Made by a program: the position numbers and the translations under genes
Part shown: positions 607 to 5,032 of the stretch, one piece after another
How positions within the stretch are numbered: position 1 is the stretch's first letter
How the letters are laid out: the number at the start of each line of letters is the position of its first letter
From: a virus
Length of the DNA stretch: 5,032 bases
Strand: one strand, 5' to 3'
Virus record (IMG/VR): IMGVR_UViG_3300045988_003444
Location: 1-5,032 of that record
The notes under the pieces: model-generated
The model's input: the letters and a program-made list of their open reading frames with translations, nothing else
What the model was told of the DNA's origin: nothing
The model's database searches: none

Positions 607-2328
607 CTAGAAGTGATCTACGAGACCAGGGGTACCAAACATAGGCATAGGACGCACAGTAGTATAACGGAAGCCTACGTCGAGCAAGAACTCAGGCTCA
701 TCTTGAACCGCGACAATGCGCTTAATAGGCGGATTTTCAGTGATGAATTCCTCATTGAGAGTAGGAGCATTACTGAAGAATTGAGATAAGTGCCAGACGT
801 CGAGATTACCACCGACTACAGAGCTACGGAACTTGCCTGTGATCTGAGAAGGTTTATAACGATATTCAGCGTAGCGTTCCTGGTAGCCGAAAACAGTAGT
901 ATCAGCTTCAGAACCTTGAGCATAGATCTCACGAAGTTCAATGGCCTGCTCACCAAGATGCGCGAATGTAGGCCAATAAAAATCATAAACAGTAGAACGA
1001 AGCCACATTTTGTTAATACCTTGCTGATAGGTTAAGTCAGCACGAGCGCAAACAAAGCCTATAATATAGCCGTGTTCAACAAAAGACTTTGTAAAACCAT
1101 GGAATCTAGACGCAGTAACGCCATAAGCGGAGAGATTGCCTTGAGGGGAGGTGTTGTCGGTTGCTGAAGTCTGAGCTATTGGATTGACGTTAACCATCTT
1201 CGTGAAGGAGCCGAGGAACTCAGGACGCTGAAGACGAGCGTCTGGAGAAACAACGCCGAAGAAAGAGCGAAGCACTTCAGTATACCGACTGCCACCGCGG
1301 GCAAGACGCTCATAGAACTTCTGCATTTGGAAAGCAGTGCGTAAGCTGTTGATAGTGAATATACTTGAGCTGTCGAGATCAGCATATGAATCCTTCGACA
1401 GCCAAGAAGAACCGGGTTGGGCAGTAACAGTAGCTAGACCAGAACCGTTAATAGAGTGACCAGCTATAGAGACATGATAACCACCTTGATACTTCAATGT
1501 GCCGCTTCCGGTATAGACACTATGAACACCGCCGCTTTCAGAAAGCTGAGCAGCACCTAAGTTATTATCAGACTGCTGAACGAAATAGCCTGAAACAGGC
1601 GAAGGGTCGACTAGGGTAGCGGTACCGGCCAGGCCTATAGATACACCGGGTCCTTTCTGCGTCCAAGGCAATGCCGAAGTGAAGTAATCATGACGCTTAC
1701 CGCGAGGCGGACAAGGATATCCGGGGAAAATGGAAGTTCCAGATTTAAATAGCCAAGAAGGCTGATCGGAAGCGCGAGAAGAATCCAATACTTCATTCTT
1801 ATCGCCTTTCTGAATCTTAACGGATTTCTGGAGGTTCTCGTCTCTGAACCATTCGTTCCAGATAAGGTATACAGCACGGAATGGAAGAGCGTTAATACCA
1901 GATATAGTATTAGACGTGTTAATAGGCAATCCGAAATAATCCCATAGAGAACCTACATAAGTATTGTTAGTGTTATCGTTACCCATCATGACCGGGATGA
2001 CATAATCAGTACTATCATCAGGATCTTCCTGTTCGAAGCAGAAATTCTGCCAGTGGTCCCATACTAGGCGATTGGGAACAAAGAAGAAAAACCAGTCAAG
2101 ATAAATATTATCCATGATAGGCTTAATCGGGGTAGCCAGGCGAGCAAAGTAATTGACAGACATACGAGTAGTATCGCCAGGCAGTACTTCATCGACGAAC
2201 ACAGGTATGAGCCTGCCTGAATTGAAAGTTGTCTTATAGACATGCGAACGGTCGAACTTAGTTCTTCGCATATACATTGCAGGAGCATCACTGAAGCGAT
2301 GTCCTCTAACTCTAATTTTTCGAGCCAA
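607..2328 (-). CDS. VP1: Major capsid protein VP1 (Microviridae F-protein family), 573 aa.
   Basis: This is the largest ORF. The N-terminal segment RRTKFDRSHVYKTTFNSGRLIPVFVDEVLPGDT and the central segment TINSLRTAFQMQKFYERLARGGSRYTEVLRSFFGVVSPDARLQRPEFLG are hallmark conserved blocks of microvirus major capsid proteins. The start is TTG at 2328, preceded by AAGGTG and a 5-nt spacer. The stop is TAG 609..607. Confidence 0.97.
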   Translation of the reverse strand: MARKIRVRGHRFSDAPAMYMRRTKFDRSHVYKTTFNSGRLIPVFVDEVLPGDTTRMSVNYFARLATPIKPIMDNIYLDWFFFFVPNRLVWDHWQNFCFEQEDPDDSTDYVIPVMMGNDNTNNTYVGSLWDYFGLPINTSNTISGINALPFRAVYLIWNEWFRDENLQKSVKIQKGDKNEVLDSSRASDQPSWLFKSGTSIFPGYPCPPRGKRHDYFTSALPWTQKGPGVSIGLAGTATLVDPSPVSGYFVQQSDNNLGAAQLSESGGVHSVYTGSGTLKYQGGYHVSIAGHSINGSGLATVTAQPGSSWLSKDSYADLDSSSIFTINSLRTAFQMQKFYERLARGGSRYTEVLRSFFGVVSPDARLQRPEFLGSFTKMVNVNPIAQTSATDNTSPQGNLSAYGVTASRFHGFTKSFVEHGYIIGFVCARADLTYQQGINKMWLRSTVYDFYWPTFAHLGEQAIELREIYAQGSEADTTVFGYQERYAEYRYKPSQITGKFRSSVVGGNLDVWHLSQFFSNAPTLNEEFITENPPIKRIVAVQDEPEFLLDVGFRYTTVRPMPMFGTPGLVDHF

Positions 2329-2350
2329 TTTTTCACCTTCTTTAGAGTGT

Positions 2351-2390
2351 AAACCTAAGAATTGACCTGAAGCAATATATTCTTAGGTTT
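2351..2390. other. Perfect 12-bp inverted repeat with a 16-nt loop in the VP3-VP1 intergenic region.
   Basis: aaacctaagaat (2351..2362) is the exact reverse complement of attcttaggttt (2379..2390). The loop is tgacctgaagcaatat. It lies 23 nt upstream, in mRNA sense, of the VP1 start. Confidence 0.6.
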
Positions 2391-2413
2391 TAGTTTATTT
2401 TTGCGTCACCTAC

Positions 2414-2440
2414 GCCAGTTACATCAAGTAAGTAACTGGC
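2414..2440. other. Perfect 9-bp inverted repeat with a 9-nt loop, just downstream of the VP3 stop.
   Basis: gccagttac (2414..2422) pairs with gtaactggc (2432..2440). The loop is atcaagtaa. It begins 11 nt after the VP3 TAG in mRNA sense. No U-tract follows it on the coding strand. Confidence 0.55.
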
Positions 2441-2451
2441 TTCGGTGCCGC

Positions 2452-2934
2452 CTATTTTAGTGTTTCTTCATTATTTTGTGTTAAAGTGTTATTTTTTTCT
2501 TGTGTTTGTTCACTACTTACGGACTGTTGTGGTTTATCAGAGGTATAATCACTACCATACAGACCTTCTCGTTGGAGATATTCGAGCGTTTCAGGGTTAT
2601 TTAATTGGCTGATGAAATTCATGGGATCGTGGCCGAATTTAGCTCGAATGTAAGCGGGCAAGCTGTAGAATTCTTCACGAACTCCAGAGACAAGTTCGAG
2701 AGCCGTGCTATAGTCGCCGGGAAGTGTTGCATCTCCGAATTGTAGATAAGCATACTGCGAACTATCGCCGAGATCCAGAGTAGCTATACCTTTCTGACCA
2801 TCAGCATACTTGTTGACGATATAGTTGATATCAGTTTCATCTTTCTCGTCCTGAACGGCGAGGGAGGGCATAGTAAACTCAATGCCGCAATGATCATGTT
2901 CTTCTACGGGATCATAAGCTGTTCTAAACTTCAT
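2452..2934 (-). CDS. VP3: Internal scaffolding protein VP3, 160 aa.
   Basis: ATG at 2934 is preceded by GAGGTG with a 5-nt spacer. The pattern MKFRTAYDP...PSLAVQDEKDETDINYIVNKY...EEFYSLPAYIRAKFGHDPMNF matches the conserved layout of gokushovirus/chlamydiaphage VP3 scaffold proteins as I recall the family. The position immediately upstream of VP1 fits. Confidence 0.85.
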   Translation of the reverse strand: MKFRTAYDPVEEHDHCGIEFTMPSLAVQDEKDETDINYIVNKYADGQKGIATLDLGDSSQYAYLQFGDATLPGDYSTALELVSGVREEFYSLPAYIRAKFGHDPMNFISQLNNPETLEYLQREGLYGSDYTSDKPQQSVSSEQTQEKNNTLTQNNEETLK

Positions 2935-2980
2935 AGTTTCACCTCTTTTCGCAGGCGCCTAGACGCGGCGGGCGTGGCGC

Positions 2981-3015
2981 ACAGAAAAAGGACGATCTCT
3001 TGCGAGACCGTCCTT
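2981..3015 (-). terminator. Rho-independent terminator on the minus strand, downstream of the ORF5-like gene.
   Basis: The minus-sense RNA reads AAGGACGGUCUC-GCAA-GAGAUCGUCCUU followed by UUUCUGU. That is a 12-bp stem and a GNRA-type tetraloop, with a U-run of 5 counting the last two stem residues. The single non-Watson-Crick position is a G-U wobble in minus sense but an A-C mismatch in plus sense. The structure is therefore better on the coding-strand transcript. Confidence 0.65.
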
Positions 3016-3041
3016 ATTCTGATACGCTCTATATTAGATTA

Positions 3042-3254
3042 TCATTTAATCGAGTCGCTGTCAACATCCTGTACGTAGTCTACGGCGCGACCAACCAAGA
3101 CAGGAACGCGGGTTTCGTCAGAACTTTCAGTATAATAGAGGCCATCAGTATCGCCAAGGTTACCGACATAATAAATACTAAAATCTTCAGGGTAACTATT
3201 AATAAGCATCTTATCATCATTGACCAAACCTTCGAAAGCTCGCAGAGCGAGCAT
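3042..3254 (-). CDS. ORF5/VP5-like small non-structural protein, C-terminal 70 aa as an ATG-initiated ORF.
   Basis: MLALRAFEGLVNDDKMLINSYPEDFSIYYVGNLGDTDG carries the RAF...VND...(H/Y)PEDF.(L/I)...G.(F/L).D..G pattern that I recall from the small ORF5/VP5 family of gokushoviruses and chlamydiaphages. There is no convincing SD in front of ATG 3254, and the similarity continues upstream of this ATG (see the pseudogene entry and findings). Confidence 0.55.
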   Translation of the reverse strand: MLALRAFEGLVNDDKMLINSYPEDFSIYYVGNLGDTDGLYYTESSDETRVPVLVGRAVDYVQDVDSDSIK

Positions 3255-3277
3255 GTCATTATGGTATACCTGTGGAG

Positions 3278-3294
3278 GGCTGAATTATTCAGCC
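3278..3294. repeat. 17-nt perfect palindrome ggctgaattattcagcc (7-bp stem, 3-nt loop).
   Basis: ggctgaa pairs with ttcagcc. On the minus strand the loop triplet is TAA at 3287..3285, which is the in-frame stop of the ORF5-like frame. Confidence 0.9.
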
Positions 3295-3300
3295 TTGGAG

Positions 3301-3543
3301 TCATAAATGCAATAGAGTCTCAGCAGAACCATCTCCTTTTCTAAAAGCAACTAAATACCTACGAATCATGAGATATAGCGTAGCTGATATGACATAATAG
3401 TCATTATCAAGACGGATAACTCTAGAATCATCAGGCTTGAGGCGGTAAGCAGCATATTTGCTTCCGCGAAAAGAGTAATTGAAGAGAATATTACGATTCG
3501 AACAGAATTTTTCAACAGCTTCAAGCTCGCTAATAATAATCAT
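3301..3543 (-). CDS. Hypothetical protein, 80 aa, between VP4 and the ORF5-like gene.
   Basis: It fills the only otherwise unassigned same-strand gap. The start context is cagAAAGGAGATGatt, so the SD abuts the ATG with a 0-nt spacer, which is atypical. The stop is TGA 3303..3301. I recognise no family in MIIISELEAVEKFCSNRNILFNYSFRGSKYAAYRLKPDDSRVIRLDNDYYVI.... Confidence 0.5.
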   Translation of the reverse strand: MIIISELEAVEKFCSNRNILFNYSFRGSKYAAYRLKPDDSRVIRLDNDYYVISATLYLMIRRYLVAFRKGDGSAETLLHL

Positions 3544-3570
3544 CTCCTTTCTGATTTAATGATAACACAG

Positions 3571-4482
3571 TCACAATACTTTGTCAAGCTTTCGGCCAAG
3601 AAAATGCTTGTATTTCCCTTCCTGAACGCGACAGCGATCGACCAGACGCTCATAAGTATTGTTCTCCAAGTTATGAAGCATCTTCTCAATACGGTTATTG
3701 CGAATGAACTCCATCCAGTGAGGATGCGTTTCATTGAATTTATTATCGTAATAACGAGGAGGACGCATCTTCTTACCGTTAATGACAACGAAATCATTAG
3801 CATAACACTCCTCACCATGCTCTTCGAGCCATTTTCCGCCTATACCGGGACGATTAGATGCCAGCATGAACTCAGGAGTGCGACCATTATAATGAGCAGC
3901 AGCATTACTACCAGTCTGCTTCTTCACTATGTAGCGCGCGACGTAAGCAGCAGCGTCGAAACTAAAATCGCCAATAAGGTGCATACCGTATTTCCAGATT
4001 TTCGAAAAACGAGCAGAAGTATAAGTGTTATAACCATCTGTGCGGAACCGAAAAATTTTGTCATCAAAATCAATATTAAACAATATGTAATGATAATGGG
4101 GACGATCATGAAGTTCACCGTATTCACCACAGCTGAGGAAGCGAATACCACTGCCATACTCGCGACGAAGATTTTTCATGAACGTTTGATGAAATTTTTT
4201 GCTCAGACTCTTATTGGTCGGCAAATGATAATCATCAAAGGTGCACGTAACGAAATAAGCTGAAGACGAAGTACGGGCTTCGTGAACAGCTCTGACAGCC
4301 CATTGACGAGAATTTTCGAGCCGACAGCCGATGCACTGTTTGCAAGAGCAGCGAATGAAACGGCTATCGTTAGCGAGTTCAGGGTGAGAGGAAAGGCTGC
4401 CGTAGAAACTATAATGTTGTTTTCCGTTTTTCGTAATGGCTCCTTCGACTGGGCACATGAGAATAGGATTATAGCATACCAT
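3571..4482 (-). CDS. VP4: Replication initiation protein VP4 (HUH rolling-circle endonuclease, phiX174 A-like), 303 aa from ATG 4482.
   Basis: Motif 1 is FVTCTFD. The HUH motif is RPHYHYILF, with codons CAT TAT CAT verified at 4098..4090. The double-tyrosine catalytic motif is YVARYIVKK, with TAC GTC GCG CGC TAC verified at 3945..3931 (compare phiX174 A, YVAKYVNKK). The Cys cluster CSCKQCIGCRLENSRQWA is typical of gokushovirus VP4. I prefer ATG 4482 (AGGTGA plus a 5-nt spacer) over the track's GTG at 4491, because that GTG lies inside the SD. Confidence 0.95.
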   Translation of the reverse strand: MVCYNPILMCPVEGAITKNGKQHYSFYGSLSSHPELANDSRFIRCSCKQCIGCRLENSRQWAVRAVHEARTSSSAYFVTCTFDDYHLPTNKSLSKKFHQTFMKNLRREYGSGIRFLSCGEYGELHDRPHYHYILFNIDFDDKIFRFRTDGYNTYTSARFSKIWKYGMHLIGDFSFDAAAYVARYIVKKQTGSNAAAHYNGRTPEFMLASNRPGIGGKWLEEHGEECYANDFVVINGKKMRPPRYYDNKFNETHPHWMEFIRNNRIEKMLHNLENNTYERLVDRCRVQEGKYKHFLGRKLDKVL

Positions 4483-4499
4483 ATTTATCACCTGTACCG

Positions 4500-4528
4500 A
4501 TTGTATCAGGATTAAGTCAGAATGTCAA
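4500..4528 (-). promoter_or_regulatory. Sigma70-type promoter upstream of VP4.
   Basis: On the minus strand, TTGACA (4528..4523) is followed by an exactly 17-nt spacer and then TACAAT (4505..4500). The -35 box overlaps the TGA stop of the Arg-rich gene. The predicted start near 4493 gives a very short leader that begins at the VP4 SD. Confidence 0.6.
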
Positions 4529-4635
4529 ATCCTAAATCCACCACGTCCTACTCTTTTGAAATTTCTGCGGCGAGATTTGGAGGTGCGCCGAAAAAGGCGA
4601 CGAGAACCACGCTTAGATAATTTTCGACGTCTCAT
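4525..4635 (-). CDS. Small arginine-rich DNA-binding/packaging protein (phiX174 J-like, chlamydiaphage ORF8-like), 36 aa.
   Basis: Hand-translated codon by codon: MRRRKLSKRGSRRLFRRTSKSRRRNFKRVGRGGFRI, with 18 of 36 residues R or K. GGAGG lies 8 nt upstream. Its ATG (4635..4633) overlaps the TGA of the preceding gene as ATGA. It was too short for the supplied ORF track. Confidence 0.8.
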   Translation of the reverse strand: MRRRKLSKRGSRRLFRRTSKSRRRNFKRVGRGGFRI

Positions 4636-4871
4636 TTAGCGTCCCTCCAAGAACCGAAAAAACGGCTAGTTTTTTTAGAATCGTTTTTATTAGCAACTGG
4701 CTCAACAAGTTTATCAACATCGTGCGAAAAGTCGGATGCGACTTTACTGACAAGCTGAGTAGATGCAGTAGAACGGCCTTTCAATGCTTCGATCAGGTCA
4801 ACAACTTCCTGAATGAAGGGAACAACAACGGAAACAATAAAAGTTAGAATCATAGTAGTTTTGTTAGACAT
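4632..4871 (-). CDS. Small membrane protein, 79 aa, with one N-terminal transmembrane helix. Function unknown; lysis candidate.
   Basis: ATG 4871 is preceded by AAGGAG and an 8-nt spacer. The track's GTG at 4880 is part of that SD. The sequence is MSNKTTMILTFIVSVVVPFIQEVVDLIEALKGR...KKTSRFFGSWRDAK, with a hydrophobic stretch of about 16 residues at positions 6..21, then a polar, charged tail. It is tightly packed between VP2 (its SD overlaps the VP2 stop) and the J-like gene (ATGA overlap). Confidence 0.65.
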   Translation of the reverse strand: MSNKTTMILTFIVSVVVPFIQEVVDLIEALKGRSTASTQLVSKVASDFSHDVDKLVEPVANKNDSKKTSRFFGSWRDAK

Positions 4872-4883
4872 TATATACACTCC

Positions 4884-5032
4884 TTATTTGAGAATATAAC
4901 CAATACCGCGAAGAATGTGACCAAGACCTGAATTACCAACGCCTAACGAGTCATAGAAATCAGCTTCCTGCTTCGAAAGACGAGCATTCTGGGCAGCGAA
5001 GCCTGCGGCAGAATTAGACTGATTAGCTGAAG
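4884..5032 (-). CDS. VP2: VP2 C-terminal part (4978..5032 duplicates 1..55). The full circular gene is 593..1 joined to 4977..4884: 687 nt, 228 aa.
   Basis: In-frame continuation ...AAQNARLSKQEADFYDSLGVGNSGLGHILRGIGYILK, ending at TAA 4886..4884. The next gene's Shine-Dalgarno sequence overlaps this stop codon. Confidence 0.85.
   Translation of the reverse strand, partial: SANQSNSAAGFAAQNARLSKQEADFYDSLGVGNSGLGHILRGIGYILK
4978..5032. repeat. Second copy of the 55-nt terminal overlap (redundant with 1..55).
   Basis: Exact 55/55 identity with 1..55. An overlap of 55 nt is consistent with an assembler k-mer overlap on a circular contig (inference). Confidence 0.95.

Follow-up and report, generated by a model that had tools for sequence, protein, structure and literature searches.

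A probable inherited ochre allele of VP5 in a human-gut gokushovirus, with the stop codon in the loop of a hairpin shared by intact relatives

The VP5 (ORF5) gene of a human-gut gokushovirus is interrupted at codon 16 by an in-frame TAA, which forms the loop of a small perfect hairpin and lies where the relatives of this virus have a glutamine codon. The best explanation overall, to which we assign a probability of roughly three in four, is that the TAA is an inherited ochre allele derived from CAA, that the hairpin is a by-product of codon choice and that no device acts on the stop. The virus group is well known and the event of an ordinary kind: the stop is a nonsense allele, not a recoding signal.

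The window, i.e., the whole stretch of 5032 bases that was analysed, comprises a genome of 4977 nt in circularly redundant form, the ends overlapping by 55 nt, and represents the complete circular genome of a human-gut gokushovirus. Every gene is on the minus strand, and the order is VP4-orf80-VP5-VP3-VP1-VP2 (Table 1). The order VP4-VP5-VP3-VP1-VP2 has been described for human-gut Gokushovirinae (Roux et al. 2012, PMC3394797), and VP5 of the window, which sits between VP4 and VP3, matches that arrangement. Megablast retrieved ten gokushoviruses of GenBank, sampled from the faeces of humans, pigs and dogs, with 80-87% identity and, for nine of the ten, a coverage above 90% of the genome; in all ten an unbroken VP5 of 94-96 aa is annotated at the same place. 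The small orf80, for which searches of Pfam and PHROG matched no family, overlaps the start of VP5 by 32 nt in a different frame. The promoter-like site upstream of these two genes has 11 of 12 consensus matches, and a TG precedes its second hexamer. As to the host, a lone 23-nt match to Flavobacterium branchiicola among the GTDB genomes was considered as a clue and rejected as a chance match; no further similarity is found there.

Table 1. Features of the window, with coordinates, strand and the basis of each assignment.
Feature	Coordinates	Strand	Basis
79/82-codon ORF	4880..4632	-	PHROG 23638
Arg-rich ORF, 36 codons	4635..4525	-	
VP4 replication initiator	4482..3571	-	Pfam REP_ORF2-G2P
Promoter-like TTGACA-17-TATCAT, upstream of orf80 and VP5	3559..3587	-	consensus match only
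orf80, 80 codons, clade-conserved unannotated small ORF between VP4 and VP5	3301..3543	-	
VP5/ORF5, 96 codons and terminal TGA, interrupted at codon 16	3042..3332	-	PF20577, relatives' annotation
15-codon N-terminal remnant of VP5, MVLLRLYCIYDSKAE	3288..3332	-	translation
Ochre codon TAA, codon 16 of VP5, derived from CAA (Gln)	3285..3287	-	relatives' codon
Perfect hairpin/palindrome GGCTGAA-TAA-TTCAGCC, 7-bp stem, 3-nt loop	3278..3294		inverted-repeat search, folding
70-codon downstream ORF from Met27, candidate reinitiation product	3042..3254	-	gene callers predict exactly 70 aa
Terminator-like hairpin, 12-bp stem then T-run, just downstream of VP5	2988..3015	-	also inverted-repeat search
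VP3 scaffold	2934..2452	-	Pfam Chlamy_scaf
VP1 capsid	2328..607	-	Pfam Phage_F, E = 1.6e-164
VP2, 228 aa	593..1, continuing across junction	-	

Translation of the minus strand from 3332 to 3042 gives MVLLRLYCIYDSKAE, a stop, and then FSPPQVYHNDMLALRAF...; in the conceptual product, 15 codons precede the stop, 10 codons come after it, and the last 70 codons begin with the downstream methionine, which is residue 27. The 70-aa ORF alone matches the Pfam family PF20577 (Phage_ORF5) with 33.7 bits, from profile position 24. With the 25 upstream codons added, the 96-codon conceptual product scores 67.1 bits (E = 1e-18), and its match reaches profile position 1 (positions 1-64); both values exceed the Pfam gathering threshold for this family, which is 27 bits. 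PHROG 1670 was matched by the closest intact relative with E = 5e-23, and a close intact homologue, used as query in an exhaustive HMMER search, retrieved 2236 cluster representatives. In an alignment of 149 diverse representatives among these 2236, with their own residues 2-5 set against window residues 3-6, the N-terminal motif [YF]-x-[VI]-[YF]-D-x-K-A-x-x-[FY]-x-x-P is present near the start and corresponds to residues Y7 to P20 of the window; the near-invariant columns are D11 (147 of 149), K13 (124), A14 (108), F/Y17 (146) and P20 (141). The family score and the motif agree with the preliminary description of this DNA, which had recognized an ORF5/VP5-like gene with the family N-terminus upstream of the stop. 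The alignment that it had proposed as a check sets the stop against Gln within the clade and against a variable column (A/V/T/S/I/N/Q) in the family; Met27 is not conserved across the wider family. On the ground of this homology, the reading frame on either side of the stop is assigned to VP5. What the window carries is a disrupted allele of VP5/ORF5 and not a normal family member: it agrees with the family in HMM score, motif and synteny but lacks the uninterrupted ORF of about 85-100 codons. AlphaFold2, run on 40 close relatives, gave an unusable model (pLDDT 42.5), and a PDB profile search yielded no VP5 homologue of solved structure. To our knowledge, the function of VP5 has never been tested, and its role is only inferred in the literature.

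Codons 1-11 of the 15-codon remnant overlap the end of orf80, and the peptide that the remnant encodes is identical to the N-terminus encoded upstream in the intact relatives L132-L143. At codon 16, two of the ten GenBank relatives have CAA and eight have CAG. A search of IMG/VR with a degenerate DNA pattern in which codon 16 was left free returned 132 matches, each with CAG or CAA at this position, and the same pattern restricted to TRR codons had zero matches in IMG/VR. A codon-unbiased, protein-seeded sample comprised 78 unique sequences, all with Gln (CAG in 59, CAA in 19). These three sets confirm that, as had been supposed, the stop stands at a normally sense position. A premature stop in the gene body is found in none of the 141 unique VP5 DNA sequences of the clade; in seven of these the nominal codon 2 is a stop, and the start lies further downstream. 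The closest relative, KT264819, and L132-L144 carry GGCTGAACAATTCAGCC, and their CAA is one nucleotide away from TAA. Since every relative has CAA or CAG, the TAA can be traced to a single C-to-T transition; among the explanations offered beforehand, nonsense mutation is the one that gains support. Only four codons of the whole VP5 gene can be turned into a stop by a transition, namely Q16, Q21, R31 and Q88.

Neither further stops nor frameshifts are present in the interrupted VP5. Its pN/pS against the nearest neighbour is 0.31, the clade median being 0.145 and the 95th percentile 0.44, and in the stretch of 10 codons from the stop to Met27 all differences from the intact relatives are synonymous. 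There appears to be no clear sign of decay, which would fit a recent mutation and would equally fit continued translation of the gene. As to the source of the mutation, a C left unpaired in the packaged coding-sense ssDNA would be a plausible target of spontaneous deamination. An origin by APOBEC-type deamination of hairpin loops was considered and rejected, as the C opens the loop on its 5' side and follows an A, which differs from the preferred substrate geometry described in PMC10948833 and PMC7952602, and as the setting is bacterial.

The TAA is not confined to one assembly. The exact 70-aa product was found on L130, which is an ENA contig of the human-gut run ERR414452 (PRJEB5224); over 3657 nt this MEGAHIT contig and the window are 100% identical, and the contig has the same TAA and the same stem. 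Both are also present in L131 (UMGW01012454.1, assembly GCA_900527075.1), which is a different genome, 98.5% identical to the window. The 66 positions at which L131 differs cluster in two places, 4977..4312 and a 34-nt patch at the 3' end of VP5, with zero differences between 3015 and 828, a distribution that suggests a recombination-like mosaic relationship between the two genomes. When additional carriers of the TAA were sought, IMG/VR gave none and the JGI metagenome contigs gave one, L131; likewise, exact-protein look-ups of VP3 and of orf80 gave only the two contigs L130 and L131. The TAA sublineage thus appears to be rare among the sequences searched, and its allele, present in two assemblies and genomes, is best regarded as real and heritable. 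Within samples, the population may be a mixture of CAA and TAA. About a dozen homologues of 69-71 aa that start with MLALRAF were considered as possible cases of recurrent truncation and rejected, as they reflect start-site calls and not stops: in all 13 contigs that were retrieved for them the upstream frame is open, reads MVLLRLY[CS]IYDSKAEQFSPPQVYHND and has CAA at codon 16. Apparently, these database entries are start choices of the gene callers, which avoid in this way the 32-nt overlap with orf80.

The preliminary description had placed the TAA exactly in the 3-nt loop of a perfect hairpin, and these coordinates proved right by translation and by an inverted-repeat search, which returned GGCTGAAT and ATTCAGCC at 3278-3285 and 3287-3294 with 100% complementarity. 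The predicted folding energies are -9.3 kcal/mol for the RNA (z = -3.8) and -6.5 kcal/mol for the DNA (z = -4.9), and the hairpin is both the minimum-energy and the centroid structure in either prediction. The 106-nt context around it folds no better than shuffled sequences. Perfect hairpins with a stem of at least 7 bp and a loop of 3-5 nt occur three times in the window, with 0.97 expected from dinucleotide shuffles, 7% of which reach three; as a bare sequence feature, the hairpin is unremarkable. It was also considered as an intrinsic terminator and rejected: no T-run follows the stem, and a terminator-like site is found at 3015..2988.

The origin of the stem can be read from the relatives. 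KT264819 and L132-L144 have GGCTGAA-CAA-TTCAGCC, and most of the remaining relatives have GGCTGAA-CAG-TTCAGTC, with one G-T/U pair; since the intact relatives have the same stem around a CAA or CAG loop, the hairpin is older than the stop. The codons that form it are Lys(AAG)-Ala(GCT)-Glu(GAA)-x-Phe(TTC)-Ser(AGC)-Pro(C..). It is the spelling of the conserved peptide K-A-E-Q-F-S-P as AAG GCT GAA CAR TTC AGY CCN that creates the stem: GCTGAA, coding for Ala-Glu, is the reverse complement of TTCAGC, coding for Phe-Ser, so that the stem arises from codon choice. The coincidence of stop and loop, which had been singled out as the unusual part, is correct as to position and loses most of its emphasis; it is weak, given that the stem was there before the stop and that only four codons, one of them codon 16, can be converted by a transition. 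A comparison with close relatives, also suggested at that stage, shows that the stem of the palindrome is kept, often with a G-T/U pair, and that the stop is not, save in L130 and L131.

Among the alternatives, the one that survives best, although we hold it to be improbable, is that the hairpin is a selected RNA or ssDNA element, involved in mRNA stability, translation pausing or ssDNA recognition, and that the stop is tolerated as the loop alone would be free to vary. In 78-82 unique sequences, the wobble positions of the stem are nearly fixed (AAG 99%, GCT 100%, GAA 96%, TTC 98%), and AAG and TTC are not the preferred codons at the other Lys and Phe sites of VP5. Most changes turn a G-C or A-U pair into G-U (AGC/AGT 38/40, GAG 3, TTT 2), pair-breaking changes are rare (AAA 1, non-GCT 0), and the naive chance of four such codons is 0.355^4 = 0.016. 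However, equal invariance is seen in 35% of all VP5 codons, which form runs elsewhere in the gene; the sequences are phylogenetically related, and a compensatory double change is neither possible nor seen. Moreover, none of five distant VP5 genes has a hairpin at the homologous site; these five are the ones that could be placed and folded among eight GenBank regions. Rfam, searched at E up to 1, matched nothing in the window, and the folding of the 106-nt context, no better than that of shuffles, also speaks against a selected element. The related suggestion of a conserved DNA palindrome acting as a binding site finds no support, as the AGT codon of about half of the relatives breaks the symmetry of the double strand and the hairpin is absent from the distant genes that were examined. 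These data leave a hint, drawn from codon usage, of nucleotide-level constraint on the stem; even a selected hairpin would leave the nature of the stop unchanged.

More doubtful is a decoding of the TAA, in which an ochre-suppressor tRNA, supplied by the host or by a co-resident recoded phage, would insert Gln, or in which low-level readthrough would occur, the virus being a natural "sus" mutant. The ancestral residue is indeed Gln, which is inserted by classical ochre suppressors (supB type) and in TAG/TAA-to-Gln codes; the 10 codons after the stop are free of amino-acid changes, and the pN/pS given above does not clearly indicate a relaxation of constraint. Nevertheless, a recent mutation explains the unchanged codons and the mild pN/pS equally well. 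Several findings count against decoding. The stop is limited to one rare sublineage. The internal TAA is the only one found in-frame in the genome, all other ORFs being intact, and no tRNA gene was found in the window or genome. TAA also serves as the terminator of VP2 (TGA is used five times and TAG twice for the further stops), and its readthrough in this genome would fuse VP2 to orf82. This VP2-TAA-orf82 arrangement was considered as a second suppressible TAA and rejected as a coincidence, as the relatives have the two ORFs in different frames. The context of the stop is UAA followed by U, which reportedly gives the most efficient termination in E. coli (Poole, Brown and Tate 1995), and we know of no reassignment of TAA in bacteria.

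The arrangement of the hairpin also speaks against structure-assisted readthrough, which had been raised at the outset: the stop lies inside the loop and not upstream of a structure, and none of the relatives has it. With the A-site codon at its centre, a 17-nt hairpin is enclosed in the mRNA channel of the ribosome and is unwound on decoding; from this position, inferred from ribosome structure, the hairpin cannot act as a downstream stimulator. Programmed readthrough is recognized by a stop that is conserved in relatives, which here all have CAA or CAG, and by a leaky stop or context followed within a few nucleotides by a stimulatory structure, a combination not seen at this site. A reassigned codon would be expected inside several reading frames and at the end of none; the TAA of this genome shows the opposite behaviour, with one in-frame case and VP2 ending in it. 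Recoding or readthrough is therefore unlikely, because of the UAA-U context, of VP2 ending in TAA and of the lack of a genome-encoded tRNA. We give marginally less credit still to the bolder proposal that the TAA lineage is a suppressor-dependent ("sus") microvirus, with UAA-16 read as Gln and wild-type VP5 regained in its natural host or in cells that a recoded phage with a suppressor tRNA has co-infected, or, in a softer version, that the hairpin of the clade is functional and the stop survives in its loop.

A sequencing or assembly error, with C as the true base (CAA) and an intact VP5, is very improbable. The difference is of a single base, and C-to-T is the commonest class of damage and artefact; however, this option, which the preliminary description had listed, is largely refuted by the two further carriers: the same T is found in the identical MEGAHIT contig L130 and in the different genome L131 with its 66 differences, and assemblers report the majority base. 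Least credible of all is a programmed bypass like the hop of T4 gene 60, or a designed two-piece gene whose 15-aa and 70-aa products act together: the stop directly after a sense codon within a small hairpin superficially resembles the gene 60 take-off site and an in-frame AUG lies 30 nt downstream, but the relatives are colinear with a plain Gln codon and leave no gap needing a bypass, the next GAA landing codon is codon 34, use of which would delete conserved residues, the arrangement is absent from all of the 141 or more relatives, and the other 70-aa "VP5" entries are gene-caller starts with an open upstream frame.

For the inherited ochre allele, the following course of events is proposed. 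In the sublineage, one C-to-T transition changed Gln16 of VP5 from CAA to TAA; ribosomes starting from the ATG at 3332 would stop after 15 codons, and full-length VP5 would not be made in appreciable amounts. At best, some of the terminating ribosomes may reinitiate at AUG-27 (3254); no other in-frame start follows the stop. That translation can restart beyond a nonsense codon is a classical observation, as in lacI and T4 rIIB; here, no Shine-Dalgarno sequence was seen at a useful distance from AUG-27 on reading the sequence, so that reinitiation may be inefficient. The 70-residue product would be without the most conserved N-terminal motif of the family, Y..YD.KA..F..P. The hairpin would play no part as a device acting on the stop, the mutated codon merely happening to be its loop. 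Because the N-terminal motif is strongly conserved and the ORF is intact in all 141 other sequences of the clade, the truncation should be costly and normally selected against. The lineage could persist because the host tolerates the loss or a hypomorph, or by means of VP5 from co-infecting gokushoviruses. Some gokushoviruses are without a recognisable VP5 (PMC3394797), which makes a tolerance of VP5 loss conceivable.

Compared with known systems, the locus is homologous to the VP5/Chlamydia-phage ORF5 family (PF20577, PHROG 1670) along profile positions 1-64 and has the same synteny; unlike every other examined member, which is uninterrupted, it has its frame broken by the TAA. It resembles the classical amber and ochre mutants of small phages such as phiX174, in which a single base change turns a Gln codon into a stop, and the restarts of lacI and T4 rIIB, in that a nearby downstream in-frame AUG could support a putative reinitiation; unlike the classical nonsense mutants, the allele was found in natural metagenome assemblies and was not selected in the laboratory. 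With the recoding of gut phages (TAG read as Gln, code 15; TGA read as Trp, code 4) it shares an in-frame stop in place of Gln, whereas here there is one occurrence, of TAA and not of TAG or TGA, in the strongest termination context; the codon also ends VP2, no suppressor tRNA is encoded in the genome and the stop is unconserved. In programmed readthrough, as for Qbeta A1 and retroviral gag-pol, the structure is downstream of the stop, whereas here it surrounds it. As far as sequence comparison can tell, the locus behaves like a classical phage ochre mutant, and it lacks the defining features of programmed readthrough, codon reassignment and bypass.

Some practical lessons can be drawn. A perfect palindrome can come simply from reverse-complementary codon pairs, such as those for Ala-Glu and Phe-Ser. 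Caution is also needed in annotation, as many of the 70-aa "VP5" proteins in databases do not come from truncated genes; the overlap with an upstream ORF that lacks annotation forced the gene callers' choice of start. For the biology of the family the significance is modest: the window provides a natural knock-out or hypomorph allele of VP5, a gene conserved across thousands of gokushoviruses. If the suppressor-dependent reading were true, the host range would be set by suppressor status. If the genome is not viable alone, it would be an example of a defective microvirus maintained by complementation; if it is viable alone, the N-terminal motif of VP5, or the whole of VP5, would be dispensable in some hosts.

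Between VP4 and VP5, the gokushovirus genome in the window carries an 80-codon ORF, orf80, whose frame is open and conserved in essentially all relatives of the clade, with a length of about 79-80 aa, and whose product contains ...FRGSKYAAYRLKPDDSRVIRLDNDYYVISATLYLMIRRYL...; it found no match in Pfam or PHROG, and in the GenBank relatives it is left without annotation. The ORF overlaps the start of VP5 by 32 nt. Since a promoter-like site precedes orf80 and a terminator-like hairpin follows VP5, the arrangement suggests that the two genes are transcribed together as one small unit. A second promoter-like site was also identified.

Features of the window around VP2, orf80 and VP5
Feature	Window position	Strand	Description
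VP2 end / orf82 start	4871-4893	minus	junction TAA GGA GTG TAT ATA ATG
Second promoter-like site	4528..4500		strong; ahead of VP4
Promoter-like site	3559-3587	minus	TTGACA-17-TATCAT, strong; directly upstream of orf80
orf80	3301-3543	minus	80 codons, between VP4 and VP5
Terminator-like hairpin	2988-3015	minus	12-bp, with T-run; directly after VP5

Numerous publicly available “VP5” predictions, 69-71 aa long (P0014, P0034, P0035, P0059, P0079, P0085, P0093, P0100, P0106, P0107, P0109 and P0110 in the protein database; loci L132-L144) begin at Met27 despite an open upstream frame, and they were accordingly rejected as truncated genes: they are annotation artefacts that mimic truncation, the internal ATG seemingly having been chosen by gene callers to escape the overlap with orf80. 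In seven members of the clade (L026, L055, L067, L072, L089, L104 and L113), VP5 codons 1-2 read ATT TAG instead of ATG GTT, so that translation of their VP5 has to begin at a later codon, such as the TTG of codon 4. In the window, the annotated ATG at 3332 touches its GGAG with zero spacer, and for this reason it may not be the sole VP5 start used in the clade.

VP2 terminates with TAA and is followed, in the same frame, by the 79/82-codon orf82. This layout was dismissed as a coincidence, because VP2 and the following ORF occupy different frames in the GenBank relatives KX513872 and KT264819. The C-terminal ~45 residues of VP2 in the window are unrelated to those of relatives. The 23-mer AAAGCTGAATAATTCAGCCCTCC, which includes the TAA loop of the VP5 hairpin, was also found in the Flavobacterium branchiicola chromosome (NZ_JBHSGV010000001.1; L240 3373-3395), where nothing else beyond it is similar to the phage; by our own estimate, chance alone would produce about 0.3 matches of this kind in the genome collection searched.

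The window (828-5020) was compared with the second genome carrying the TAA, L131 (UMGW01012454.1, 1-4196). Among the 66 differences, 55 fall within 4977..4312 (about 8%) and seven within 3083..3050, while 3015..828 contains none. This mosaic divergence points to recombination among related gokushoviruses or, possibly, to a chimeric strain assembly.
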